From assembly GCA_039795775.1 (NCBI GenBank), contig JBDKLC010000005.1:312638-376637 (forward strand): a stretch of 64,000 bases of DNA, read 5' to 3'. A program made the translations under genes and the position numbers. A model generated the notes under the pieces. The model saw only the letters and a list, made by a program, of their open reading frames with translations, did no database searches and was not told where the DNA came from. Positions 3,800-63,075 of the stretch are shown piece after piece (the first letter of the stretch is position 1; the number at the start of each line of letters is the position of its first letter). Source of the DNA: Candidatus Parcubacteria bacterium. GTDB lineage: Bacteria > Patescibacteriota > Minisyncoccia > Phycocordibacterales > CAIZLB01.

Positions 3800-3968
3800 A
3801 CACGCGACGACCTTTATGGGCCGTAAATTAGCTAATAAGTTGTATTAGTTGCGTGTAATCATGGGTAAAATAGTTAAGTTGTGCTAATTGTAGCAAGTAT
3901 TGTCTGTGTTGCAAAATTCACCTCGAAACTATGCTCGACGTTTGAATATATATAAATATCAACAAAGT

Positions 3969-3995
3969 AAAAAGTAGGAATATTTCCTACTTTTT
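3969..3995. terminator. Palindromic bidirectional intrinsic terminator (A-tract, GTAGGAAT/ATTCCTAC hairpin, T-tract), copy 1 of 5
   Basis: Perfect palindrome AAAAAGTAGGAATATTTCCTACTTTTT, immediately downstream of the minus-strand gene 4042..4860. Confidence 0.7.
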
Positions 3996-4041
3996 ACTTT
4001 ATACTAGTTTGAGGTATTTATTGAATTGAACTGAAAAATTA

Positions 4042-4862: not shown

Positions 4863-5732
4863 TTATGAATTCATTATAGACCCAATTTCCTCTAACATAC
4901 TAACTATCTTAGATTCGCTGAATCCGAGATCCTTTAGTTGTTGTGAGCTATTGTACACACTCCTACAGAGTACCATTTTGTGAGTAATGAGAAGCTGTTT
5001 TTCAGCTGGTGTGATTGTTGTGAGAGCTGTCACTGGGTGCAGCTTTGTCTCTTCGATCATATCTCTGAGGTTTCCAACCAGCGGATAATCCCAACTCATC
5101 ATATTGAGTTTGTTACATTCACCATACTTGATAGCTGTTTCTGTGAACTTTGTGTTTGTAATAAGCCATCCTTCTGCAAGTTTTCGAGGCATTTTTCCAT
5201 AGTCGTAAACGTTACTTGCAAGATCTTCATACCGAGCCTTTACATAAAGCGCAACTTTGAGATCGGTCTTACCTGAAGGTTCATTGTGATATTTCACTTC
5301 AGCCATAATGAGTTTATTTTGATTCCAAGCAACAACATCCACTTCGTGAGGAACGCAACTACCAAAGACTACTTGTCCTGTAAGGGCTTCAAAACCTTTT
5401 GCTTTGAACAACTCAGTGACATAAACCTCAAATGGAAAACCAGTTGGACCAAATTCCATAAGAGATCGTCGGAGCGAATATCGGAGCGCCGCGGGTCGAG
5501 CACGTTCTTTGAGCTCATGAAATGCTTTTTTATAAATATCAGACGCTGTTGTATCAATAATCTGATGTTCTGAGATCTGGTGAACAATAGATTTTACGAC
5601 ACTTTCAGCGACATGCTCATCTGCACCTGATTTTATGAGAGAGGTTTTTAATTTGCTTGTCTGAAACTCTTCTTTACTACCGTCTTCTTTTTGGATGTAT
5701 ATCTTTGATTGCATACTACGAAAGTATACCAC
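4863..5732 (-). CDS. ATP-cone domain fused to Mrr-like PD-(D/E)xK restriction-endonuclease domain
   Basis: N-terminal ATP-cone-like segment (KIYIQKEDGSKEEF...KLKTSLIKSG). Downstream HEVDVVAW...AEVKY nuclease core. Overlaps the mnmA 3' end by 17 nt. Confidence 0.6.
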   Translation of the reverse strand: MVYFRSMQSKIYIQKEDGSKEEFQTSKLKTSLIKSGADEHVAESVVKSIVHQISEHQIIDTTASDIYKKAFHELKERARPAALRYSLRRSLMEFGPTGFPFEVYVTELFKAKGFEALTGQVVFGSCVPHEVDVVAWNQNKLIMAEVKYHNEPSGKTDLKVALYVKARYEDLASNVYDYGKMPRKLAEGWLITNTKFTETAIKYGECNKLNMMSWDYPLVGNLRDMIEETKLHPVTALTTITPAEKQLLITHKMVLCRSVYNSSQQLKDLGFSESKIVSMLEEIGSIMNS

Positions 5733-6798
5733 CGCCTATGCACTTCGAACCACTGTAGATAACTATAGATTGTCCTGGTGTAAGGGCCGTCTGCGGTTGA
5801 TCAAAAGAAACTGAATATTGTCCGCTGTTTCCTTTTGAAATACGACATGTTTGTTTTTGCTGTCTGTATCGCGATCGAGCTTCATATGATTTTGTAAGGT
5901 CTGGTTCAGTAATAGTCCAATTTACAGATGTAAGTTCAACTGTTTTTGGCATATAATCTCCTTTTTTAAAAATATCTTGTGGCACTACCGTAATTATGTT
6001 TTTTTCGAGGTCTTTTGCAACAATATAATGAGGTGTGTCATCTGGTCGAGTGATTGTCAGTCGGAAACCATGTCGTTCACCAATTGTATACAAGAGTGAA
6101 CCGTCATGTTCGCCTATGATTGCTCCATGTGCATCAAGTACGGCCCCCTTTTCTGTTTGTATATATTCCTTTAAGAACTCCTTCATATCTACATGCCCGA
6201 GGAAGCAGATTCCCTGACTGTCTTTTTTATCAAATACTGGCAACTTATATTTCTCAGCAAGTTTTCGAACCTCAGGCTTTAGCAAGTGACCAATTGGGAA
6301 CAATGTGTGTTTGAGGTCCTTCTGATTGAGGGTCCATAAGAAATAGCTTTGATCTTTGTTAGGATCTTTTCCTTCGTGCATTTCACTTGCTTCTAGCGTC
6401 ACTATATTTTGAGCATAGTGACCTGTAGCGATAAAATCCGCACCTTGTTTCAGTGCCTCATCAAGAAACGAGCCGAATTTAATCTGCCGATTACACATCA
6501 CATCTGGGTTAGGAGTTCGCCCAAGCTTGTATTCGTTGATCATATAGTCCACTACGTCTTTTTTGTATCGTTCTGCAAAATCAAACGTAAGAAATGTAAT
6601 ATCAAGAGCCGCTGCTACGCGCATTGCATCTCGTCGTTCATCTTTCCATGTGCATTCGCCATTTTCTGGCTGCCATACTTTTATAAAAACACCTGTCACA
6701 TCGTAGCCTGCCAATTTCAAAAGAAGTGCTGATACAGAAGAATCAACACCGCCAGACATACCAACAAATACTTTAGGTTTTTTTGAAATACTCTTCAT
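5716..6798 (-). CDS. mnmA: tRNA-specific 2-thiouridylase MnmA
   Basis: PP-loop SGGVDSS at the N-terminus, MnmA-length protein, conserved catalytic-Cys context. Confidence 0.9.
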   Translation of the reverse strand: MKSISKKPKVFVGMSGGVDSSVSALLLKLAGYDVTGVFIKVWQPENGECTWKDERRDAMRVAAALDITFLTFDFAERYKKDVVDYMINEYKLGRTPNPDVMCNRQIKFGSFLDEALKQGADFIATGHYAQNIVTLEASEMHEGKDPNKDQSYFLWTLNQKDLKHTLFPIGHLLKPEVRKLAEKYKLPVFDKKDSQGICFLGHVDMKEFLKEYIQTEKGAVLDAHGAIIGEHDGSLLYTIGERHGFRLTITRPDDTPHYIVAKDLEKNIITVVPQDIFKKGDYMPKTVELTSVNWTITEPDLTKSYEARSRYRQQKQTCRISKGNSGQYSVSFDQPQTALTPGQSIVIYSGSKCIGGGILS

Positions 6799-31107: not shown

Positions 31108-31680
31108 CTATTCGCGGTTGTCGGGATGCCCTTCGCCTGGGCCTTCTCCTGGGCGCGCCGCATTGAGCAAGTCGTCGGCAGTGACTGAGGTATTTCCGAC
31201 ATCTCGAACTCCCTGGATGTAAGGCCCCTGTTCGCGAGGACCATCAGGAGTCATCACATGTGAATCCGCAAGGATCACGACAACTTCTACGGTTTCACCT
31301 GAATACTGTGATTCCTGCGAGCCGCCTTTTGGGACAGGCATATAGAGGAACGTATAGTAGGCATACATGATGCAGATGCCGGCGATGATGCTGCCCACCA
31401 TCCAGTTGTAGGAGATGAAGGACAGCAACGGCAGAAGCACCACGGGCCAGTAGACCACGTTTGCTTTGGTGAAGCCATCGGCACTGACGGTGCGGAACTG
31501 GCCGAACAGGAACACTGGTGAGAACACCAGGAAGAAGTCCAGCCAGAGTGCGGCCGTAACCGAACTTGTGACTTTGTAGGCAGCGCCTCCCGCCAAGATT
31601 TGGGCGAAAAGCAGAACGAGCAGAGCCCGAACTGGCATGCGATGCTTTTGAACGATGTGTGACGCGATTTGCGATTTCAT
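31108..31680 (-). CDS. Hypothetical 4-TM membrane protein in GC-rich islet
   Basis: ORF with strongly elevated GC relative to its flanks and 4 hydrophobic helices. Confidence 0.55.
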   Translation of the reverse strand: MKSQIASHIVQKHRMPVRALLVLLFAQILAGGAAYKVTSSVTAALWLDFFLVFSPVFLFGQFRTVSADGFTKANVVYWPVVLLPLLSFISYNWMVGSIIAGICIMYAYYTFLYMPVPKGGSQESQYSGETVEVVVILADSHVMTPDGPREQGPYIQGVRDVGNTSVTADDLLNAARPGEGPGEGHPDNRE

Positions 31681-31908
31681 GGGTTTGTTGTGGTATGTGG
31701 GTTAGACAAATGCTTACCAGAGACCTTCTCCTTCAGCAGAGAACATCCATGTATGTAAAATACGTACACAACACTATCTACAGCATGGATACTTTCTGCT
31801 AAAGGAGGACAAACCCTGTCACGAGAATCAATATGTGAAGGAACTTAGTTCGATGTATATAATAGCATGAAATAGTATAAAAGTCAATGCATACATAATG
31901 CAAAAGAT

Positions 31909-31939
31909 GCAAAAGAAAAGGCCCCAACCGGAGTTGGGG
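31909..31939 (-). terminator. Intrinsic terminator after the second GC-rich islet gene
   Basis: Hairpin CCCCAAC/GTTGGGG with a CGGA loop, followed on the minus strand by TTTTCTTTTGC. Confidence 0.6.
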
Positions 31940-31988
31940 ACCTTGAGAAGTTGTGCGCAAGTCTTCTTAGTAGTGCGCGTGGGCGGGA

Positions 31989-32327
31989 CTAGTCCGTGTC
32001 CCACATCCAGGTGCCGTCATCGCCCTGGTGAGCGCTGCCGGCGTCGGTGCGCATGGAGCCTTCGTCAATGGGGCGAGCCCCTCCGACGCACTTCATCAGA
32101 TGAGTTCCCTCATAGCGGACGTGCAGGCACCCCTTGTGCAAGCACAAGATGATCCATTGGGCGGCCAGCGAGTCGGTCGCGTTGGCGTAGTCGGCCTGAT
32201 ATCGGCCGGGGACAATCAGGTATTCTCCAGCTTTTTCGGTGGAACCGATTTGCTTGGCGAGAATGGCGCGAGCGCCTTTTTCACCTTGGTCGGCGATGAT
32301 TGCTTTAACTTCAGCAAGTGTTTGCAT
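31989..32327 (-). CDS. Hypothetical protein in GC-rich islet
   Basis: A 112-aa ORF with GC near 60%. No motif. Confidence 0.5.
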   Translation of the reverse strand: MQTLAEVKAIIADQGEKGARAILAKQIGSTEKAGEYLIVPGRYQADYANATDSLAAQWIILCLHKGCLHVRYEGTHLMKCVGGARPIDEGSMRTDAGSAHQGDDGTWMWDTD

Positions 32328-32385
32328 GGTTTGTTTCTTTCTATCAGTTGAATGTTGAATTTAGGTTTATGAAACAGCCACATGG

Positions 32386-32437
32386 TGACTGCATCTTGGA
32401 ATGCCCCTCCGTAGAGAGGCGCTTAAAGATGCAGTCA
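32386..32437. repeat. 12-bp perfect inverted repeat with 28-nt spacer
   Basis: TGACTGCATCTT ... AAGATGCAGTCA, upstream of the islet gene. Confidence 0.6.
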
Positions 32438-32559
32438 GACACTCATTGAAACTTTAAATGTGCTTACAAGTACAATAATAGCATATTTAATGCTATTTGT
32501 CAACATACCCTAAGCCCCTATCCTACTAGCAAAATATGGCTTTTTTTAAGCTTATTGGA

Positions 32560-33033
32560 CTACTCTACCTGACTCTTTATCTCTTCAAGTGCTGTAGATA
32601 ATGTTTGTTCTATTTCAATTTTTTCAGCATCAGAAATTTGTCTACCTGGCGATTTTGTAAATACAAAATAAAGCGGACTATCATCTGACAAGTCAAAAGT
32701 CATACCGAAATTTTTTCTAAAAGGTCTCTTTAGTTGTGCTACGAGCTGCGCAGCAATTTTTTGCTCTTCTACGTCTACACTGAGAAATTCAGAATCAACA
32801 CTTACCATGGCAGTCGTGCTTGTAAACTTTAGTCCTAACTTAAACTTACTCATATCTTTCTTTTCTGCGCTTGATTCAGCTGCTACTACTTCTGGATTGG
32901 TTTGACCGAAATTTGCTTCGTGTGATGGCATATTGTTTGGTGTTATGAGTAAATTGTAGCATATATAAAAAATAGAAAACCCCCACGTCCATGTAACGTG
33001 AGGGGTAGAATTTTGATTGACACTTCCAAGCAC
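32560..33033 (-). CDS. Hypothetical protein (the true start may be the internal Met at MPSHEANFG)
   Basis: ORF only. Acidic, with no motif. Confidence 0.45.
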   Translation of the reverse strand: MLGSVNQNSTPHVTWTWGFSIFYICYNLLITPNNMPSHEANFGQTNPEVVAAESSAEKKDMSKFKLGLKFTSTTAMVSVDSEFLSVDVEEQKIAAQLVAQLKRPFRKNFGMTFDLSDDSPLYFVFTKSPGRQISDAEKIEIEQTLSTALEEIKSQVE

Positions 33034-33043
33034 CGTGCGTGCA

Positions 33044-33544
33044 TTAATCGCTTGGTTTACATTTTGGCTTCATGAAAAGCCAGCGTGTAGCGCTTGCAAA
33101 GACAGCGTTGAGATCAATCAACCCGCTGCTGCTATGCGTGCTGCTCACGTATTGGATGTAGCTGGCATGACTAGCTTCAGGGTTGAAAGGCTCGTTGATT
33201 CTGATGAAACCTTTGTCTTGCTCTTGTGAAGCAATTAACGGGTAGTCATCAAGACACGGAACCAATCCAATTTGACTCGCTCGGTCACATATCTCACCAG
33301 CTGTCACTTGGCCATTGGCAAAACCAAGACTGGCAGCGGTGACGACTACTAAAGTAAAGTCTGGTAACTCTGTTTTTGTATACCAGAAACGTGCAGGACG
33401 CACTATCCGCGCTGGGTTTAAGGCTCTCTTTAGAAGCCGCCTTACTTGATCTGGATTTTCGATGAGTTCCTGCATGCGGCCTTGGCTCATGCGAGGAAGT
33501 GATGTTGCTATTGTTGCTAGTAGTTTTGCCGTTTGTGGGCACAT
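33044..33544 (-). CDS. Hypothetical protein
   Basis: A 166-aa ORF with no recognisable motif. Confidence 0.45.
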   Translation of the reverse strand: MCPQTAKLLATIATSLPRMSQGRMQELIENPDQVRRLLKRALNPARIVRPARFWYTKTELPDFTLVVVTAASLGFANGQVTAGEICDRASQIGLVPCLDDYPLIASQEQDKGFIRINEPFNPEASHASYIQYVSSTHSSSGLIDLNAVFASATRWLFMKPKCKPSD

Positions 33545-33658: not shown

Positions 33659-33776
33659 CAACCTGTGCTTGCAACATAAAGAACTACTGGAGTGTAGTTA
33701 TACAACTTTTTGTAAATAAGTCAACGCAGGTATTCACTGCTGCTTTATCATCCGCAGTCTCCTATCAAATAAAATA

Positions 33777-33809
33777 ACAGCCCCCGAAATGGAGGCTGTT
33801 CTTTTATTT
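33777..33809. terminator. Hairpin + T-run (AACAGCC/GGCTGTT), forming with the next 19 nt a diverged copy of the tRNA-Ala 3' end-plus-terminator unit
   Basis: 7-bp stem with an 11-nt loop, followed by CTTTTATTTG and then the 19-nt tRNA 3'-end copy. Confidence 0.5.
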
Positions 33810-33821
33810 GTGGACCCTACA

Positions 33822-33925
33822 GGATTCGGTCACAGGTCTCGCCGACATGCGGCTCGCCCGCGACCCCGCCTCCCTCGTCTCGGTTCGCCTTGCTCACAAC
33901 GAGACTTCAGTCCGGCTTTCTCATC
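33822..33925. repeat. GC-rich ~100-nt tRNA-associated structured element, copy 1 (candidate ncRNA or mini-insertion)
   Basis: Shares a 52-nt identical 5' module and a 19-nt 3' module with the copy at 60009..60109. The variable centre forms a hairpin in both copies. Flanked by a 19-nt direct repeat of the tRNA-Ala 3' end. Confidence 0.6.
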
Positions 33926-33943
33926 AAGTAGCTCAGGAAATAG

Positions 33944-33980: not shown

Positions 33981-33981
33981 G

Positions 33982-34054
33982 TGGACCCTACAGGATTCGA
34001 ACCTGCCACCCCCTCAGTGCAAATGAGGTGCTCTACCAAATGAGCTAAGGGCCC
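33982..34054 (-). tRNA. tRNA-Ala (anticodon TGC)
   Basis: Manual cloverleaf: acceptor GGGCCCT/AGGGTCC with the G3:U70 Ala identity pair, D arm GCTC...GAGC, anticodon loop TTTGCAC, T-loop TTCGAAT. CCA is not encoded. Confidence 0.9.
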
Positions 34055-41444: not shown

Positions 41445-41660
41445 TTTAATCCTCCAAGGTTGAATGTTCAAATCTAGCCCCTCTTTCCAGGGTTTAGGAA
41501 AGTAGCCAGACCAAAATCCTACCACACGATTTTACTTTCATCAAGGTCGTTGAGACACTTATAATTAATGAATTCTGATATATAAATTTAATATATACAG
41601 CTTCGTATATATTCGTATATAAAGATAAAGAAGATAAAATATGTATAAAAACATCTCCTA

Positions 41661-41691
41661 GTAAAAAGTAGGAATAATTCCTACTTTTTAC
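41661..41691. terminator. Palindromic bidirectional terminator, copy 2 of 5
   Basis: GTAAAAAGTAGGAATAATTCCTACTTTTTAC. Confidence 0.7.
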
Positions 41692-42080
41692 TTTGATAGA
41701 AATTATATATATCAGATATATACGACACCTCTTCAAATTGCTAAAAAAGACTGACACTCTATATTCACACTCTCCCCCTTGAAATCATAAAAAAACAGCG
41801 TATAGTATATTTCCAGAGGGAACGCTGCCAACGTTCAAAGGCATTCTTTAGTCGTTTCGCAAGAAATGGCAACCCAAAGAGTGTATGAGGTCACGGCATA
41901 ACCCAAGTAGAAACCAAGCACGAATGCAAACGCATCCAAGCACAGCAGATAGCGAAAACATGGTCCATCCACAAGGAGGCCAATATACGCTATCCTACAA
42001 GGCGGGTAACTATATCCGCCACCTCGGTCCCGGCCGTTTTCCGCGCATCCTGCTCGGCGACTAACCTCGCCATCATCGGT

Positions 42081-44216: not shown

Positions 44217-44381
44217 ATATGTGTATGTATGAGTATGAGCGCAAAAATGCGTGATTACCTAGACTATATCATAGAGGGTCATACGCACGAAAGATGTGTT
44301 TAATTTGCTGCGCAAATAACGTTTGAATACGTGCTGAAAACTGTTAAAAAAAGATCAACTATAGTGCAAAAGGTACAAAAT

Positions 44382-44408
44382 AAAAAGTAGGAATAATTCC
44401 TACTTTTT
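44382..44408. terminator. Palindromic bidirectional terminator, copy 3 of 5
   Basis: AAAAAGTAGGAATAATTCCTACTTTTT downstream of tgt. Degenerate half-copies follow at 44440..44475. Confidence 0.7.
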
Positions 44409-44513
44409 ACTTATATAGTTTTCTATATATATTTATATGAATTAATATAAATGTATCCCTACTTTTATTCCTACTTTTGTCTCTACTTTATATCTGCCTT
44501 TATATTTACATTC

Positions 44514-46988: not shown

Positions 46989-47176
46989 TCCTCACTAGCT
47001 AGAAACCTTGCGATCGCTCCCGAAAGAGGGGGACGATGTAAAGGTGCTTCAGTAGTAGTATAACGTCTTATAGGGGTTTTGCAAGCCGAATTTAGCCAAT
47101 TATATAGAGGGTTAAATTGATATATTGTGGCATGGGAGAATTGATATATAGGATATATGTATAGTTTGTAACCATA

Positions 47177-47205
47177 GTAAAAGTAGGAATGTTTCTTACT
47201 TTTAC
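47177..47205. terminator. Palindromic terminator family, degenerate copy 4 of 5
   Basis: GTAAAAGTAGGAATGTTTCTTACTTTTAC, with one mismatch in the arm. Confidence 0.5.
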
Positions 47206-47345
47206 AAACAGTGAGTTGTATATGTTTGTTGGGAAAAGCCATCGAATTCCCTATTTTTAAAATTTAAAAACAAAAGACCCACCCGAAAGTGAGAATTTTG
47301 TGAAATTCCCAATCGGGTGGGTCGCGTGGATATTCGAAACGAATC

Positions 47346-54786: not shown

Positions 54787-54853
54787 TTTTTGCTTTTGCT
54801 ATTGCTGTTGCTATAGTGCGATGTAACAATACTATAAGCTAGTGCGTATATAG

Positions 54854-54880
54854 AAAAAGTAGGAATAATTCCTACTTTTT
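54854..54880. terminator. Palindromic bidirectional terminator, copy 5 of 5 (between convergent topA and parB)
   Basis: AAAAAGTAGGAATAATTCCTACTTTTT. Confidence 0.75.
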
Positions 54881-54955
54881 CTATATATACCCGAAGATAT
54901 ATATTTGACCTATTTGATCTATAGATAGACCAGCTCCTGATATTTACTCTGATAC

Positions 54956-56164: not shown

Positions 56165-56247
56165 GCCGTGGTGGCGGAATGGTAGACGCAATCGACTCAA
56201 AATCGATCGGGGGCAACCCCGTGAGAGTTCAACTCTCTCCCGCGGCA
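56165..56247 (+). tRNA. tRNA-Leu (anticodon CAA), long variable arm
   Basis: Manual fold: acceptor GCCGTGG/CCGCGGC, anticodon stem ATCGA/TCGAT with loop CTCAAAA, variable arm CGGGGGCAACCCCGTG, T-loop TTCAACT. Confidence 0.85.
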
Positions 56248-56319
56248 CACATACAAAAGATCTATATAGACTTGCGAAACTTGCCCTTTGGGGCTTTTTT
56301 CGTATAGTAAAAGCACAAC

Positions 56320-58815: not shown

Positions 58816-59430
58816 CTAAGCATTTACACCGAAATCTTTAAGACGTTCAGTTAAAGAGCTTACATCTGTATATACATGACCCTGAATGCCCAACCTCTCT
58901 GCGGCTTCGACATTTAGAACATTATCATCAATAAAAATAGATTCTGATGGTTCCCCATTGATCTTTTGCAAAGTGTGTAAGTATATCTCAGACTCTGGTT
59001 TTACCATTTTTATATGGCTTGAAATAATTATGTGGTCAAATAAATTTTTGAACTCAGGAAAATCTACAAATATTTTTCTATCAAAAAAGCTATGGTTTGC
59101 ATTCGATAGCAGCACTATCTGATATCCGCTAGCGCGTAATTTGCTTATTAAATCAATCAACTCATTATTTAATTTCAAATACGAATCAGCCTGACTTCTT
59201 ATTTCCTGTTTAGTGGCCGTTATGCCTTCATACTTTGAGAAGCGATCAAATATATCATCCTCCGATAACTCACCGAGGTCGAATCGTTTGAGAATATCCT
59301 GAAGCTCAGAATCGACAAAGCCGCGATTTAGATAATTATCCTTGTACCACAAACTCAGCACTGGATCGATAAGTACACCAAAACAATCGAATATTATAGT
59401 TTTAATATTTTTATTAGCAGTAATCATCAT
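58816..59430 (-). CDS. HAD-superfamily hydrolase
   Basis: Motif I (IIFDCFGVL) and a C-terminal motif III/IV (IFIDDNVLNVEAA). Confidence 0.8.
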   Translation of the reverse strand: MMITANKNIKTIIFDCFGVLIDPVLSLWYKDNYLNRGFVDSELQDILKRFDLGELSEDDIFDRFSKYEGITATKQEIRSQADSYLKLNNELIDLISKLRASGYQIVLLSNANHSFFDRKIFVDFPEFKNLFDHIIISSHIKMVKPESEIYLHTLQKINGEPSESIFIDDNVLNVEAAERLGIQGHVYTDVSSLTERLKDFGVNA

Positions 59431-59500
59431 GTATATGTGTCGTGAATCTGAATGGGATATCGCGCTTCGCCGTTTAATTTATGTAATTAATCGTATCACA

Positions 59501-59540
59501 GAAGCCGGCTCACTGCGCGACTGCGTCCGGCTTTCTCGTC
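59501..59540. repeat. Partial (3' module) copy of the tRNA-associated GC-rich element
   Basis: CGACTGCGTCCGGCTTTCTCGTC matches the element 3' module CGACTGCAGTCCGGCTTTCTCATC and is preceded by a hairpin. It holds the same position relative to the terminator and tRNA-Trp as the other two copies. Confidence 0.5.
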
Positions 59541-59556
59541 CATCGTATAGAACCGT

Positions 59557-59596
59557 CAATATAAAAGACCGCAGTGATAAGCGGTCTTTTATATTG
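59557..59596. terminator. Bidirectional intrinsic terminator / 40-bp palindrome downstream of tRNA-Trp
   Basis: CAATATAAAAGACCGC-AGTGATAA-GCGGTCTTTTATATTG. Confidence 0.7.
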
Positions 59597-59599
59597 ATG

Positions 59600-59671
59600 C
59601 GGGCCCACCAGGACTCGAACCTGGAACTGCGGTTTTGGAGACCGTCGTTTTACCATTGAAACTATAAGCCC
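59600..59671 (-). tRNA. tRNA-Trp (anticodon CCA)
   Basis: Manual fold: acceptor GGGCTTA/TGGGCCC (two G:U pairs), D arm GTTT...AAAC, anticodon loop CTCCAAA, T arm CCAGG-TTCGAGT-CCTGG. 72 nt. Confidence 0.85.
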
Positions 59672-59770
59672 ATATTGTTGCGAATCGTCGAGACTGGCCA
59701 CCGAAGACGACTCAACCAGGCCAGTATACACTATTTTTGGCCATTTTGAAGCGTCACTTCCCGAGCAAAA

Positions 59771-59796
59771 GAAAAACCCCAGATGGGGCTTTTTCT
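59771..59796 (-). terminator. Intrinsic terminator of rpmG
   Basis: On the minus strand, AAAAAGCCCCATCTGGGGTTTTTCTTTT. Confidence 0.65.
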
Positions 59797-59949
59797 TTAT
59801 TTCTTAGCTTCTGTGAAAACTACTCGCTTTCGAAGCTTCTTACTGTATTTCTTGAGAGCAATCTTAGGATTTTTCTTCTTATTCTTAGTAGTATAAAGCT
59901 CCTCTCCTGTCTGCTTGTTTCTCAATTTGATTAATCGGTCTTGTGACAT
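59797..59949 (-). CDS. rpmG: 50S ribosomal protein L33
   Basis: A 50-aa ORF below the track threshold. MSQDRLIKLRNKQTGEELYTTKNKKKNPKIALKKYSKKLRKRVVFTEAKK fits the L33 pattern (YTT.KNK...KL.LKK...R.H/R..F.E.K). Classic tRNA-Tyr/rpmG/tRNA-Trp neighbourhood. Confidence 0.8.
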   Translation of the reverse strand: MSQDRLIKLRNKQTGEELYTTKNKKKNPKIALKKYSKKLRKRVVFTEAKK

Positions 59950-59960
59950 ATGTGGTTAAG

Positions 59961-59988
59961 ATAATAACAGATATTGAAGAAAAAGCAA
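59961..59988 (-). promoter_or_regulatory. Promoter of rpmG (TTGCTT-16-TGnTATTAT extended -10)
   Basis: The minus strand reads TTGCTTTGCTTTTTCTTCAATATCTGTTATTAT. The start codon is 11 nt downstream of the -10. Confidence 0.55.
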
Positions 59989-60008
59989 AGCAAACGCCCA
60001 AATATTGG

Positions 60009-60109
60009 GGATTCGGTCACAGGTCTCGCCGACATGCGGCTCGCCCGCGACCCCGCCTCCTTTGTCGCCATCGCAAGCGATATGGCGACTGCAGTCCGGC
60101 TTTCTCATC
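60009..60109. repeat. GC-rich ~100-nt tRNA-associated structured element, copy 2
   Basis: Identical to copy 1 over GGATTCGGTCACAGGTCTCGCCGACATGCGGCTCGCCCGCGACCCCGCCTCC and over CAGTCCGGCTTTCTCATC. The central hairpin has a different sequence (GTCGCCAT...ATGGCGAC) but the same geometry. Confidence 0.6.
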
Positions 60110-60127
60110 TACCCCATCATTGGAAAT

Positions 60128-60159
60128 AAAAAATACCCCTCAAATGAGGGGTATTTTTT
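60128..60159. terminator. Bidirectional intrinsic terminator between element copy 2 and tRNA-Tyr
   Basis: AAAAAATACCCCTC-AAAT-GAGGGGTATTTTTT. Confidence 0.75.
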
Positions 60160-60166
60160 ATTTCTG

Positions 60167-60250
60167 TGCGTGGGGAGGGATTCGAACCCCCGTAGCCCAA
60201 TGGGCGATAGATTTACAGTCTACTGCGATTGACCACTCCGCCACCCACGC
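60167..60250 (-). tRNA. tRNA-Tyr (anticodon GTA), long variable arm
   Basis: Manual fold: acceptor GCGTGGG/CCCACGC, D arm GCGG..TCGC, anticodon stem GTAGA/TCTAT with loop CTGTAAA, long variable arm, T arm GGGGG-TTCGAAT-CCCTC. Confidence 0.85.
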
Positions 60251-60357
60251 AAGTCATATTGGTCTGCGATACACCGCTATAAATAGTGATGTATCGCAAA
60301 AGGATTCTAACAGACTAAAGCCTTTAAATCAATATGACTCTGGGCGAGCAACCATCG

Positions 60358-63075
60358 CTATGCGACGTTTGTTGGAGTTGCAATCATGCTTTCTTTGATG
60401 AGTGCACCTTTTTTACCCTTCTTTACTTCGAAACTAAATTCTGGAGCTTCTGATGCTGTCTTTGGATGACCCTTTGTACCTACAGTGATAGTGCCTCCCT
60501 TCATTACCCCTTCTGAAATAATGAGAGATGCAACTGGAGTGAGGATCTTATTTTGAATAAGTCTTTTTAATGGTCGAGCACCGTACTGTGGGTTGTAGCC
60601 TTCTTTTGAAAGATAATCGAGAACCTCAGGTTTGAGATCGAGAATAATTTCTTTTTCGAGAAGTCGTTCTTTCACCTTTGATACTTCTATCTCTACAATC
60701 TTCTTGATTGATTCCTGACTCAAGATATCGAAGAGAACAATTTCGTCGAGTCGGTTGATGAATTCTGGTCGGAAATGATCCTTAAGAGCAGACATCACTT
60801 TGTCTTTCACTTCTACGTAGTTTGACTGGTCACTCTTTGCAGATGAGAAGCCAATCTTTTGCATTCGATCAATATACTGAGCACCAATGTTTGATGTCAT
60901 GATAATGATTGTATTTTTGAAGTTCACAGTTCGTCCTTTTGAGTCAGTGAGTCGACCATTGTCGAGCACCTGAAGAAGAATGTTGAAGATTTCAGGATGA
61001 GCTTTTTCAATTTCATCAAACAAAATCACTGAGTATGGTCGGTGTCGGATTGTATCTACAAGTGTACTGTTTTCGTCGTGGCCAACATAGCCTGGTGGCG
61101 CACCAATAATCTTTGATACAGCATGTTTTTCCATGAATTCAGACATATCCACTCGGATAAGTGCCTTTTCATCATCAAACATAAATTTAGCGAGAGACTT
61201 TGTGAGTTCTGTTTTACCTACACCAGTTGGACCGAGGAAAATAAATGAACCAATCGGTCGATGAGGGTCGTTGATACCAGCTCGTGATCGCTTGATTGTG
61301 TCTGCAACCTTTTGCACGGCTTCGTTCTGCCCCACTACAGACTTTGTAAGTTCTTCTTCGAGTCGGTTGAGCTTTCGAGCTTCTTCTTCGAGCATTCGTG
61401 ATACTGGAATACCTGTCCATCGAGAAACAACGTCTGCAATTTCGTGTTCTGTGATTTCTTCTTTGAGAATTCGTCGAGAACTCTGAAGCTTTTTGAGTCG
61501 TTTTGTTTTTGTTTCGAGATCTTTTTCGAGGCCAGGAATCTTTCCATATCGAATTTCAGCAGCTTTAGAGAGGTCTGCGTGAGCTTCAGCTCGTTCTGCT
61601 TCTTGTCGAAGTGTTTCAAGACTCTTTTTGATAGCCTTAATATCACTCAATGTTTCTTTTTCATTAATCCATTTAGCTTCTACTTCTGAAGTCTTGTCTT
61701 TGAGGTCAGCAATTTCACTTTCGATGTCCTTGATTCGAAGTTTTGTATCTTTTTCTTTTGAAACTTCGTGTTCTCGTCTGAGTGCTTCTCGTTCAATTTC
61801 GAGTCGCATGATCTTTCGGTGAGCATCTTCGAGTACAGGAGGTTTGTTTTCGAGAGAAATCTTGAGACTTGAGGCAGCTTCATCGATGAGGTCTACAGCT
61901 TTGTCTGGGAGGAATCGATCACTGATGTATCGTGTAGAAAGTTGTACAGATGAAATGAGAGCATCATCTGTAATTCGTACGCCGTGATAGAGCTCATATT
62001 TTTCTTTGAGCCCTCGCATGATAGCAATGGCGTCTTCTATAGATGGCTCATTTACGTACACAGGCTGGAATCGTCGCTGGAGAGCTGGATCCTTTTCGAT
62101 ATGCTTCTGGTATTCCTTGAGTGTTGTAGCTCCAATAGCTCGCAATTCGCCTCGAGCGAGAGCTGGTTTGAGCATGTTTGAAGCATCAAGAGAGCCTTCT
62201 GCTGCTCCTGCTCCTACAATTGTATGAATTTCATCGATGAATAAGATGATCTTACCATCTGACTTCTCAATTTCTTTTAAAATATTCTTCAAACGTTCTT
62301 CAAATTCTCCTCGGTACTTTGTACCAGCAACGAGAATTCCAAGATCAAGAGAAACAAGCTCCTTATCTTTCAAAGATTCAGGAACATCTCCCATAGCAAT
62401 TCTGTTTGCGAGACCTTCTGCAATAGCTGTCTTACCTACTCCGGCTTCACCAATGAGGATTGGATTGTTTTTTGTTCGTCGAGAAAGAATCTGAATCACT
62501 CGGCCAATTTCTGAATCTCGTCCGATCACAGGATCAAGCTTGTGTTCTCGAGCAAGAGATGTGAGGTTTCGAGTGTACTTAATAAGCGCCTTCATCTTTT
62601 TTGGATGAGACGATTCTGTAGGTTTTGAATTTTTGAGAGATTCGAGAGCTGAAATAACTGTCTCTTTTTCAAGTTTGAATTTGTTGAGGAGGTCACGAGC
62701 TGAACTTGCAACATCAAACATTGCGATAAAGATGTGTTCTACAGATACGAATTCATCTTTGAGCTGTGTCGCTACTCTGGCAGAACCTTCGATAATAGAA
62801 GCGAGCTCAGGAGTGAGATAGAGCTGATATGAAGGAGAAATAGTAGAAGAAGCCTCTCCAGTCTCTATAGACTCAAGAATATTGTCTGTCAGAAGCACAG
62901 TATCTACTTCAAGCTTTTCAAGCACTGAAAGCACCAAACTATCTTCTTGCACCATAAGTGCAGTCAAAAGATGTAACGGATTTACATTGTTCTGTCCCCG
63001 TTCGATGGCCAATTCATGGGCTTTTCGAATCGCTTCTTTTGCTTTTGTTGTGAAATGATTGAATGGAGGCATCAT
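60358..63075 (-). CDS. clpB: ClpB-type AAA+ chaperone (two NBDs, long coiled-coil M-domain)
   Basis: Clp_N repeats, Walker [10 protein letters not shown] (NBD1) and GPTGVGKTE (NBD2), and a long coiled-coil between the NBDs typical of ClpB. Confidence 0.85.

Follow-up and report, generated by a model that had tools for sequence, protein, structure and literature searches.

Integrative elements that target tRNA genes, such as tyrosine-integrase islands, prophages, and tycheposons, leave an intact tRNA followed by an insert and by a direct repeat of the tRNA 3' end beginning in the T-loop, which is the classic attL/attR signature; the functional tRNA is kept, and older fragments are pushed downstream and decay. 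Such tRNA fragments left by integrated elements are discussed in 10.1101/2022.07.05.498093 and 10.1101/2020.12.28.424599. Repeats of the miniature inverted-repeat transposable element (MITE) and repetitive extragenic palindrome (REP) type, including the Correia, RUP, BOX, and REP/BIME families, are small, noncoding, multicopy, and intergenic, often lie beside terminators, fold into hairpins through their inverted-repeat ends, and mark places where contigs break. Integron attC sites and the attP(+) site of CTX-phi conserve structure over sequence, fold from one strand, and recreate in their stem a target-like duplex with central mismatches, and the primer-binding sites of retroviruses and long terminal repeat (LTR) retrotransposons have a strand that can pair with the 3' portion of one particular tRNA and that extends into the T-loop. 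RNAs made of tRNA 3' external transcribed spacers (3'ETS), such as 3'ETS-leuZ, are released from tRNA operons, and in tRNA-like minihelices the 3' strand of the acceptor and T-stem lies in a helix. In Patescibacteria, group I introns occupy tRNA genes at anticodon loop position 35/36 and match Rfam intron models (PMC13011429). Here we describe a folded element located between tRNA-Tyr and rpmG in positions 59431 to 60357 of a 64-kb stretch of DNA from a Candidatus Parcubacteria bacterium (the whole stretch is called the window below), which belongs to a well-supported and apparently undescribed family of tRNA-linked structured repeats of Patescibacteria. The element resembles integrative elements in its repeats, MITE and REP repeats in its size and hairpin-forming ends, and single-strand recombination sites in its strand-specific, target-mimicking fold, and it lacks defining features of each.

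Three of the four tRNA genes in the window (Ala, Tyr, and Trp) have a copy of the element just 3' of the tRNA and on the tRNA's own strand, leaving tRNA-Leu (56165 to 56248, plus strand) as the only one without a copy. Two copies are full (33810 to 33935 and 60001 to 60122) and one is partial; all three are on the minus strand, as are the genes and signals of these loci given below. Copy 2, the full copy after tRNA-Tyr, opens with the 5' strand of a closing helix, P1 (this strand, x', spans about 60104 to 60122 and reads AAUGAUGGGGUAGAUGAG), continues through a core made of helices P2, P2a, and P3 (60016 to 60103), and ends in a T-loop-like 3' strand (CGAAUCCC, 60008 to 60015) and an outer P1 strand (CCCCAAUAUU) that runs to 60001. 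It was recovered by nhmmer at an E value of 5e-37 and by a covariance model at 58.5 bits (E = 1e-12), and its minimum free energy is -50.8 kcal/mol (z = -2.9). The outer part of its P1 is formed with the element's own 3' flank (AAUGAUGGGG / CCCCAAUAUU), and a closed P1 seems to be a feature that is maintained. Copy 1 lies between tRNA-Ala (33981 to 34054), itself followed by a hairpin, and a terminator (33776 to 33800); it consists of a P1 5' strand (33920 to 33932), a core (33829 to 33919), and an exact copy of the tRNA-Ala 3' end (CGAATCCTGTAGGGTCCAC, 33810 to 33828). Copies 1 and 2 have the first 18 nucleotides (nt) of the core in common and are 97% identical over a 58-nt 3' block, the last 50 nt or so of which are the same in both, and their flanks differ.

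The partial copy, at the tRNA-Trp locus (about 59460 to 59548; nhmmer E = 0.0065), was delimited by alignment with the full element at the same locus in L110 (5785 to 5925), where L-numbers (L003 to L124) label the compared loci on contigs and metagenome-assembled genomes (MAGs). The alignment extends up to ...GGCGAAGCGCGA and is then cut off, so that the window copy is truncated at its 3' side: it retains the P1 5' strand GGACGAG (matching the CGAGUCC type of T-loop), AAAGCCGGAC, and the long P2a arm and has lost P3 entirely, along with the 3' strand of P2 and the copied tRNA 3' end. A 13-mer, GAGAAAGCCGGAC, occurs exactly three times in the window; when up to two mismatches are allowed there are 6 matches against 1.1 expected, a number reached in 0 of 100 shuffles. 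Elsewhere in the window there is no further copy of the 3' end of tRNA-Ala, tRNA-Tyr, or tRNA-Trp. None of the elements contains a plausible coding open reading frame (ORF), and the ORFs that overlap copy 2 are all short and spurious.

The partnership between the element and its tRNA is visible at both of its ends. We use X for the segment of the tRNA gene from T-loop nucleotide C56 onward, X' for the copy of X at the 3' end of the element, x' for the 5' strand of the element, which is complementary to X and X', and T1 for the hairpin that usually lies between tRNA and element. X' forms the 3' strand of P1, beginning with C56 (CGARUCC...) and, in the majority of copies, extending through C74. 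Identity between X and X' is exact for 19 nt (positions 56 to 74) in L004-1, L074-2, L104-b, L027-Arg, L027-Gly, and L045, for 20 nt in window copy 1, for 21 nt in L071, and for at least 31 nt in L003, L037, and L104-a, whose duplications also take in trailer or hairpin DNA. It is restricted to 8 nt (CGARTCCC) in window copy 2 and L098, both after tRNA-Tyr, and in L080, after tRNA-Arg. Whether position 59 of the T-loop in X' is A or G tracks the upstream tRNA, and the sequence CGAATCC varies likewise with the local tRNA, appearing as CGAGTCC after tRNAs with that T-loop and as CGATTCT after tRNA-Gly. The base opposite position 59 covaries with it, giving U-A in 13 sequences and C-G in 7.

The 5' strand is also matched to its own tRNA. 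Duplexes of x' with the cognate tRNA end have a predicted energy of -12.35 kcal/mol, compared with -9.51 kcal/mol for noncognate ends, a result equaled in 1 of 5,000 permutations, and complementarity extends over 17 of 17 positions in L098 and 15 of 17 in L080, with the first 13 contiguous. Because x' is the Watson-Crick complement of the tRNA 3' strand even where the T-stem of the tRNA has a G.U pair (L098, L080, and L003), it is not a copy of the tRNA's 5' strands. The X' of four loci has CCA at a place where CAA, CAT, or CTG stands in the upstream gene. The CCA of X' was considered as proof of a retro origin and dropped, since L119, a relative without the element, natively encodes CCA at tRNA-Trp.

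Members of the family are about 100 to 125 nt long, GC-rich, and noncoding, with total inserts of 100 to 180 nt, and they share a three-way junction composed of the closing helix P1, helix P2 with a variable arm (P2a), and helix P3 with a covarying tip. The core consensus reads x'-GAG/UCG, AAAGCCGGA, the P2a arm, GAGGC, GG, and GGUCGCGGGC-GA-G (3- to 4-bp stem and loop) C-GA-GACCUGUGAC, followed by CGARUCC.... A covariance model, R1, was built from eight ungapped short-form copies, and the 27 matches aligned to it comprised 24 distinct copies. In these 24, on an alignment whose fitting to R1 favors the structure, 80.1% of cells in paired columns are paired, compared with 65.3% in shuffles, both partners vary in 29 of the 36 pairs, and the covariation score is 0.303, against 0.094 in shuffles (0 of 500 as high) and 0.03 to 0.07 when the partners are slid by one to three columns. 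RNAalifold, run on an ungapped MAFFT seed alignment, independently gave the same three-way junction. Length variation is confined to the helix tips, which is where long and short P2a forms differ. In P3, G.U pairs are present in 20 of 22 sequences at one pair and in 10 of 22 at another; the opposite strand would have C.A in their place, so that the fold is a property of the tRNA-sense strand, as either RNA or single-stranded DNA. Tandem G.A motifs in a YGAG/CGAR context recur in P1, P2a, and P3, with Watson-Crick pairs taking their place in some copies; the motif in P1 uses T-loop nucleotides G57 and A58, and P1 rarely pairs as far as position 72.

A second subtype, found after tRNA-Tyr in L123 (1425 to 1562; also in L124) and after tRNA-Trp in L111 (5745 to 5925), has a different core with comparable P1, P2, and P3 helices, including a long P2 (ACCUUUG.../...AAAAGGU) and, in P3, a hairpin whose loop is UGUAA, and it too ends in a copy of the 3' end of the upstream tRNA. 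Its predicted fold has a z of -4.6 in L123 and is no better than shuffles in L111 (z = -0.57). In L004-1 and L005-2, a module of about 75 nt inside P3 is a second-subtype module nested in the main type. Several of the hairpins between tRNA and element in L098, L007, L005, and L004 carry a YGAR/YGAR tandem G.A motif like that of the element helices, and in these loci the intervening hairpin may belong to the structured unit. The idea that the T1 hairpin is a constant part of the element was dropped, as it is native after tRNA-Tyr.

The distribution of the family was surveyed by pattern scans of metagenome and GTDB contigs, then with nhmmer, and then with the covariance model, which was run on Patescibacteria-like loci plus L062 only, and by these routes real copies were found in Patescibacteria only. 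They occur in Saccharibacteria (L037, L071, L098, and L013, the last of which has the same sequence as L004), Parcubacteria (L074), and Peregrinibacteria (L045 and L067), in MAGs classified no further than "bacterium" (L027, L080, and L104), and on metagenome contigs (L003, L005, and L007). Some 88 other pattern matches, from GC-rich genomes, were not recovered by nhmmer at an E value of 1e-3 or lower. An exact 49-mer of the element is absent from GTDB representative genomes, two pattern scans of IMG/VR returned four chance matches and no matches, respectively, with no true copy, blastn against phage and plasmid collections gave no match to the element, and full-text literature searches found no description of such an element.

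Across the loci at which linkage was assessed (L003 to L005, L007, L013, L027, L037, L045, L067, L071, L074, L080, L098, L104, L110, L111, and L123), every copy that is not cut by a contig end lies, on the same strand, after a tRNA or the degenerate 3' end of one. The tRNAs concerned are those for Ala, Tyr, Trp, Ser, Arg, Gly, Ile, Asp, Val, and Glu, and four copies (L004-2, L005-2, L007, and L110) stand behind a degenerate tRNA 3' end. Downstream of the copies lie terminators or unrelated genes. Among ORFs within 4 kb of 16 element loci, clustering showed that only the haloacid dehalogenase (HAD) family and one other family recur. HAD homologues adjoin elements at two tRNA loci, Ser in L004 (2342 to 2947) and Trp in the window (58816 to 59430), L110, and L111, and in L004 two elements bracket a 1.8-kb segment of three genes. 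Distant HAD homologues (L113 to L118) lie in other gene contexts and gave no covariance-model match, and they are uninformative about the element.

Several loci record rearrangement. On the minus strand of L104 (1894 to 2315), a unit made of the tRNA-Val 3' end, a hairpin, and the element is tandemly duplicated with a period of 175 nt, and a third, 19-nt copy of the tRNA end follows. In L037 (79 to 561), the element sits inside a tRNA operon, in the order Met-Asp-element-Thr, with no hairpin in front and with an exact 41-nt duplication flanking it; from this position it must be cotranscribed. L027 and L080, which have common synteny, differ in the position of elements at Arg and Gly tRNA loci. 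Truncated and nested copies exist, and same-species contigs break inside the element.

Comparison with relatives points to different histories for the two copies in the 59431 to 60357 stretch. In L119, the closest relative (its L33 is 86% identical), tRNA-Tyr is followed by a hairpin homologous to that in the window and by no element, and rpmG has the same upstream block of about 55 nt, with homology to the window resuming at approximately 59999. Since L119 has both the hairpin and the rpmG block without the element, copy 2 is an insertion that separates the native terminator of tRNA-Tyr from the conserved promoter of rpmG. No element is present in the 75 nt between tRNA-Tyr and rpmG of L111 (HAD 66% identical), nor directly upstream of rpmG in L119, L111, L120, or L123, and L123 has an element of a different subtype after its tRNA-Tyr. 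At the other locus, the tRNA-Trp gene of L119 ends in CCCG-CCA, with neither a hairpin nor an element after it, L111 has a second-subtype element after tRNA-Trp, and L110 (HAD 73% identical) has a full main-type element upstream of HAD. There, the element is fully intact and stands behind a tRNA-Trp relic (5620 to 5740) that has a large internal deletion and is not called by ARAGORN, which indicates that the element outlived its tRNA. On the strength of the L119, L111, and L110 comparisons, the tRNA-Tyr copy is a lineage-specific insertion, and the tRNA-Trp copy is older and is decaying in the window. The right-hand copy at the tRNA-Trp locus retains the ancestral gene-encoded CCA and trailer seen in L119, which fits an insertion that supplied a new tRNA 3' end or one that duplicated the old one.

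When these properties are set beside those of described systems, partial likenesses appear on every side. As in tRNA-targeting integrative elements, there are exact direct repeats from C56, extending over 19 to at least 31 nt in most copies and over 8 nt in copy 2, but the insert is only about 100 to 180 nt, has no integrase or cargo between the repeats and no recombinase-like family recurring among its neighbors, and contains a conserved strand-specific three-way junction along with an inverted copy of the target, x', for which a double-stranded attP would have no need. As in MITE and REP repeats, the element is small, noncoding, and multicopy and has terminal inverted repeats, in that P1 is formed by its two ends. 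In contrast to those repeats, it occurs strictly at tRNA 3' ends, and its terminal helix changes with the neighboring tRNA; the 19-nt duplication (tRNA positions 56 to 74) is far longer than the usual target-site duplication and is longer still or absent in other copies, rather than short and of fixed length, no parent transposon is known, and neither the fetched loci nor IMG/VR nor the phage and plasmid collections yielded an autonomous relative. The comparison with attC and CTX-phi attP(+), in which the G.A pairs at 57/58 take the place of the central mismatches, is one of analogy, with the strand-specific fold as the only part shown here, and it differs in that the target is the T-loop instead of attI or dif and that the crossover would fall at the junction end of the stem.

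The x' strand has the orientation and tRNA specificity of a primer-binding site, but it includes no CCA complement: the best copy, L098, pairs with positions 56 to 72 only, and its upstream bases do not complement A73-CCA. Pairing also extends to C56 rather than stopping at 58/59, and no LTR-like organization was shown. Like 3'ETS RNAs and minihelices, the element lies in a tRNA 3' trailer, is probably cotranscribed, and places the 3' strand of the acceptor and T-stem in a helix, but it is repeated after many tRNAs, has a duplicated piece of tRNA, and is not a true acceptor/T minihelix. The closest paper concerns group I introns, likewise structured RNA elements tied to tRNA genes in the same phylum (PMC13011429), but the element described here leaves its tRNA uninterrupted and stands outside it, is of much smaller size, and matches nothing in Rfam. 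Rfam 15, a set that includes self-cleaving ribozymes, T-box, 5S, RNase P, tmRNA, and group I/II introns, had no family covering the element when the whole window was searched at gathering score, at E values up to 10 on positions 59400 to 60400, or at E values up to 1 on L003 and L005; tRNAs and noise were all that came back. Judged by eye, none of the hammerhead core (CUGANGA / GAA), group II domain V, RNase P P4/CR-I, 5S rRNA, or k-turn rules fits.

Our preferred reading, which we hold with moderate confidence on the basis of comparative sequence data, is that the element is a selfish or mobile, nonautonomous, interspersed structured element that targets tRNA 3' ends. The family is multicopy and unevenly distributed among relatives, and its copies are confined to the vicinity of tRNA genes or of relics of such genes. 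The element would act as a folded single strand, which could be either read-through RNA of the tRNA 3' trailer or single-stranded DNA, and P1 would both sequester the anti-tRNA strand and mimic the duplex T-loop/3'-end target. Insertion might then proceed by strand exchange at tRNA position 55/56, equivalent to 74/75, with an enzyme supplied in trans, to give the product tRNA, X, (hairpin), x', core, X'; for this specific insertion mechanism our confidence is much lower than for mobility itself. A more speculative version, which we regard as unlikely, is a new class of guide-bearing mobile nucleic acid in which x' would pair with one particular tRNA, or with its gene, in the 3' half and direct cleavage or strand transfer at T-loop position 55/56, joining the core to the tRNA 3' end through a ribozyme or a single-strand recombinase. 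The guide would be retemplated for each tRNA, making the element a minimal, protein-free replicator or integrator akin to a "genomic tag" and resident on the tRNA genes of reduced Patescibacteria genomes.

Several observations weigh against mobility. No transposase, integrase, or reverse transcriptase was found next to any copy, and no autonomous relative was found among the fetched loci, IMG/VR, or the phage and plasmid collections. The comparison of strains yielded no filled site and matching empty site whose boundaries were unambiguous: same-species contigs all carry copy 1 and either have the same spacing there or break at the element. The duplication of positions 56 to 74 is not universal, as X' is shortened to 8 nt in window copy 2, L098, and L080, and the model leaves unexplained how x' and X' come to match a new tRNA. 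Strong terminator-like hairpins between most tRNAs and their element argue against efficient transcription. Finally, the tRNA-Trp element persists in three genomes whose HAD proteins are 66 to 73% identical, with X' nearly intact, and this persistence could reflect function rather than selfish survival.

That last point leads to the strongest competitor, in which the element is a host-beneficial structured small RNA derived from the tRNA 3' trailer, possibly acting on the cognate tRNA, or on an enzyme that targets tRNA, as a decoy, sponge, or chaperone, and its spread among tRNA loci is secondary. Its single-stranded tail would copy the 3' strand of the acceptor, and its 5' strand would be able to pair with the 3' half of the tRNA. 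Sequence and structure are strongly conserved across distant Patescibacteria, the G.U pairs make the fold strand specific, x' remains an exact Watson-Crick complement of the tRNA end in spite of G.U pairs in the T-stems of L098, L080, and L003, and the L037 element lies within a tRNA operon with no hairpin ahead of it; persistence at tRNA-Trp in the window, L110, and L111, with X' one base off the tRNA, also fits a function. We nevertheless consider such a role somewhat unlikely, since truncated or X'-poor copies are tolerated (the tRNA-Trp copy and copy 2 of the window, L098, and L080), the L110 element is intact although its tRNA is a pseudogene, presence at the same tRNA varies between close relatives, terminators stand upstream of most copies, and only some tRNAs carry an element. 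The selfish or mobile element that we prefer must also be separated from the remnants of something larger, namely islands or prophages that integrated into tRNA genes by a tyrosine integrase and, after internal deletion, left an attR-side end and a displaced tRNA 3' fragment. Such events would keep the tRNA whole and place behind it a direct repeat covering its 3' end from the T-loop onward, which matches the arrangement seen here, and both the ancestral CCA and trailer at the right-hand tRNA-Trp copy and the orphan ORFs downstream of copy 1 can be read in this way. This origin is rather improbable in our view: in none of more than 20 copies do the repeats enclose an integrase or a larger island, the sequence downstream of copy 1 holds no additional tRNA-Ala fragment, x' would have no role in a double-stranded attP site, and an arm made of DNA would not be expected to display strand-specific G.U pairs, compensatory changes, and insertions restricted to the tips of helices.

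The orientation and tRNA specificity of x' invite comparison with a retroelement primed or templated by tRNA, in which x' would be the analogue of a primer-binding site, copied anew in each cycle, and X' would be complementary DNA of the mature tRNA 3' end. The four loci where X' reads CCA against CAA, CAT, or CTG in the gene, and an x' that looks like a templated complement rather than a copy of the tRNA's own 5' strands, are compatible with this idea. We find it very doubtful, given that the CCA complement appears in no copy and complementarity ends at position 72 at most, that the CCA at the tRNA-Trp locus is explained by an ancestral gene-encoded CCA as in L119, that the duplications in L003, L037, and L104 include trailer and hairpin DNA foreign to a mature tRNA, that no reverse transcriptase is nearby, and that C56, where the duplication starts, is not a known reverse transcription stop. 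A preliminary description of this stretch, made from its sequence, had proposed that the element could serve as an upstream RNA or DNA regulatory site for rpmG and that the partial element precedes HAD in the same way. The spacing is as it was described, in that the CGAATCC of copy 2 ends at 60009, 20 nt before the -35 of rpmG (59983 to 59988), so that the element ends 12 to 20 nt upstream of this hexamer depending on the boundary taken, and the partial copy, which is real, lies directly upstream of HAD. A regulatory role did not hold up and is extremely improbable: rpmG lacks an upstream element in L119 and L111, with the promoter block kept in L119, other copies are followed by terminators or by unrelated genes, the copy ahead of HAD is truncated at its 3' side, and in every case the constant partner is the upstream tRNA. 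Neither the tRNA-Tyr copy nor the tRNA-Trp copy, as far as these comparisons indicate, is a regulator of rpmG or HAD. The linkage of copies to tRNA genes, with a duplicate of the tRNA 3' end and a complementary strand, had been missed.

The remaining features of the stretch conform to the preliminary description, whose minus-strand gene order from clpB to HAD was borne out by ARAGORN, Rfam, Pfam, and the ORFs. The clpB gene (60358 to 63075; 905 amino acids; Pfam AAA_2, AAA_lid_9, ClpB_D2-small, and Clp_N) is followed by tRNA-Tyr(GTA) (60166 to 60250; ARAGORN; Rfam tRNA 60.3 bits), whose T-loop and 3' end read CGAATCCCTCCCCACGCA (60167 to 60184), an 18-mer unique within the window. A long, A/U-based hairpin, T1, read from the sequence as AGAAAUAAAAAAUACCCCUC-AUUU-GAGGGGUAUUUUUUAUUUC (60123 to 60165), separates this tRNA from copy 2 (60001 to 60122), which in turn precedes the rpmG promoter; because element-free L119 has a homologous hairpin after its tRNA-Tyr, T1 is the native terminator and lies outside the insertion. 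The probable rpmG promoter (59961 to 59988), also read from the sequence, has a -35 of TTGCTT, a 16-nt spacer, and an extended -10, TGnTATTAT (59961 to 59969). Its placement in the preliminary description was correct: it falls inside the block of about 55 nt conserved with L119, although it scored too low to be flagged by a consensus promoter scan.

The rpmG gene (59797 to 59949) encodes a 50-amino-acid ribosomal protein L33 and was overlooked only because of the 60-amino-acid ORF cutoff. Its recognition as L33 is upheld by a match to Pfam PF00471 (Ribosomal_L33) at 35.9 bits, against a cutoff of 25, with an E value of 9.5e-9 over profile positions 2 to 47 of 47; a protein identical to the product is called L33 by JGI, homologues carry the L33 annotation, and the number of homologues found was 53. 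An intrinsic terminator of rpmG was detected by a terminator scan (59772 to 59793). Promoter-like sites precede both tRNA-Tyr and tRNA-Trp in the consensus scan, that of tRNA-Trp (59723 to 59750) being TTCAAA, 16 nt, and TATACT. The 5' leader of tRNA-Trp (59672 to 59722, minus strand) is about 40 nt longer than that of L119 and contains CGACGATTCG, the complement of the CGAATC T-loop; a structured leader was considered and dropped, its predicted fold being no better than shuffles. tRNA-Trp(CCA) (59599 to 59671; ARAGORN; Rfam tRNA 57.3 bits) ends, from the T-loop, in CGAGTCCTGGTGGGCCCG, and a hairpin read from the sequence as UCAAUAUAAAAGACCGC-UUAUCACU-GCGGUCUUUUAUAUUGA follows at 59556 to 59597. 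A hairpin like it is present behind the tRNA-Trp gene of L111 and the tRNA-Trp relic of L110 and absent in element-free L119. Beyond the truncated element lies the gene for a HAD-family hydrolase assigned by Pfam (58816 to 59430; 204 amino acids), whose product is 100% identical over the whole query to RL094_590, a 203-amino-acid NCBI protein from a "Candidatus Parcubacteria bacterium" MAG. Scores of the window's Tyr, Trp, and Ala tRNAs against Rfam RF00005 are 57 to 65 bits, compared with a gathering score of 29, with ARAGORN anticodons GTA, CCA, and TGC, respectively. Both rpmG/L33 and the gene order clpB/tRNA-Tyr/rpmG/tRNA-Trp/HAD are ordinary for Patescibacteria.

Two further observations concern the window at large. 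Downstream of copy 1 and its terminator are four consecutive minus-strand ORFs of 190, 112, 157, and 166 amino acids (31108 to 33544), which have no Pfam match and are not bounded by a second tRNA-Ala fragment; GC content is about 0.45 at 32 to 36 kb, roughly the upstream part of these ORFs, compared with about 0.40. A 38-nt near-perfect palindrome, AAAAAGTAGGAATAWTTCCTACTTTTT, is present in five copies (3962 to 3999, 41656 to 41693, 44375 to 44412, 47171 to 47208, and 54847 to 54884), and judging by its sequence it looks like a shared family of bidirectional terminator-type hairpins.

Patescibacteria have tiny genomes and yet maintain multiple copies of a conserved folded element at their tRNA genes. 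The covariance model explains contig breaks beside tRNA genes in MAG assemblies, and it flags partial tRNA fragments that confuse tRNA annotation. If the element is mobile, it would represent a new mode of tRNA-gene targeting, in which a strand complementary to the target is built into the element itself, and it would offer a handle on the recombination or reverse transcription machinery of these organisms. If it is instead a functional RNA, it would be a new class of tRNA-linked RNA in a phylum for which almost no data on RNA biology exist.

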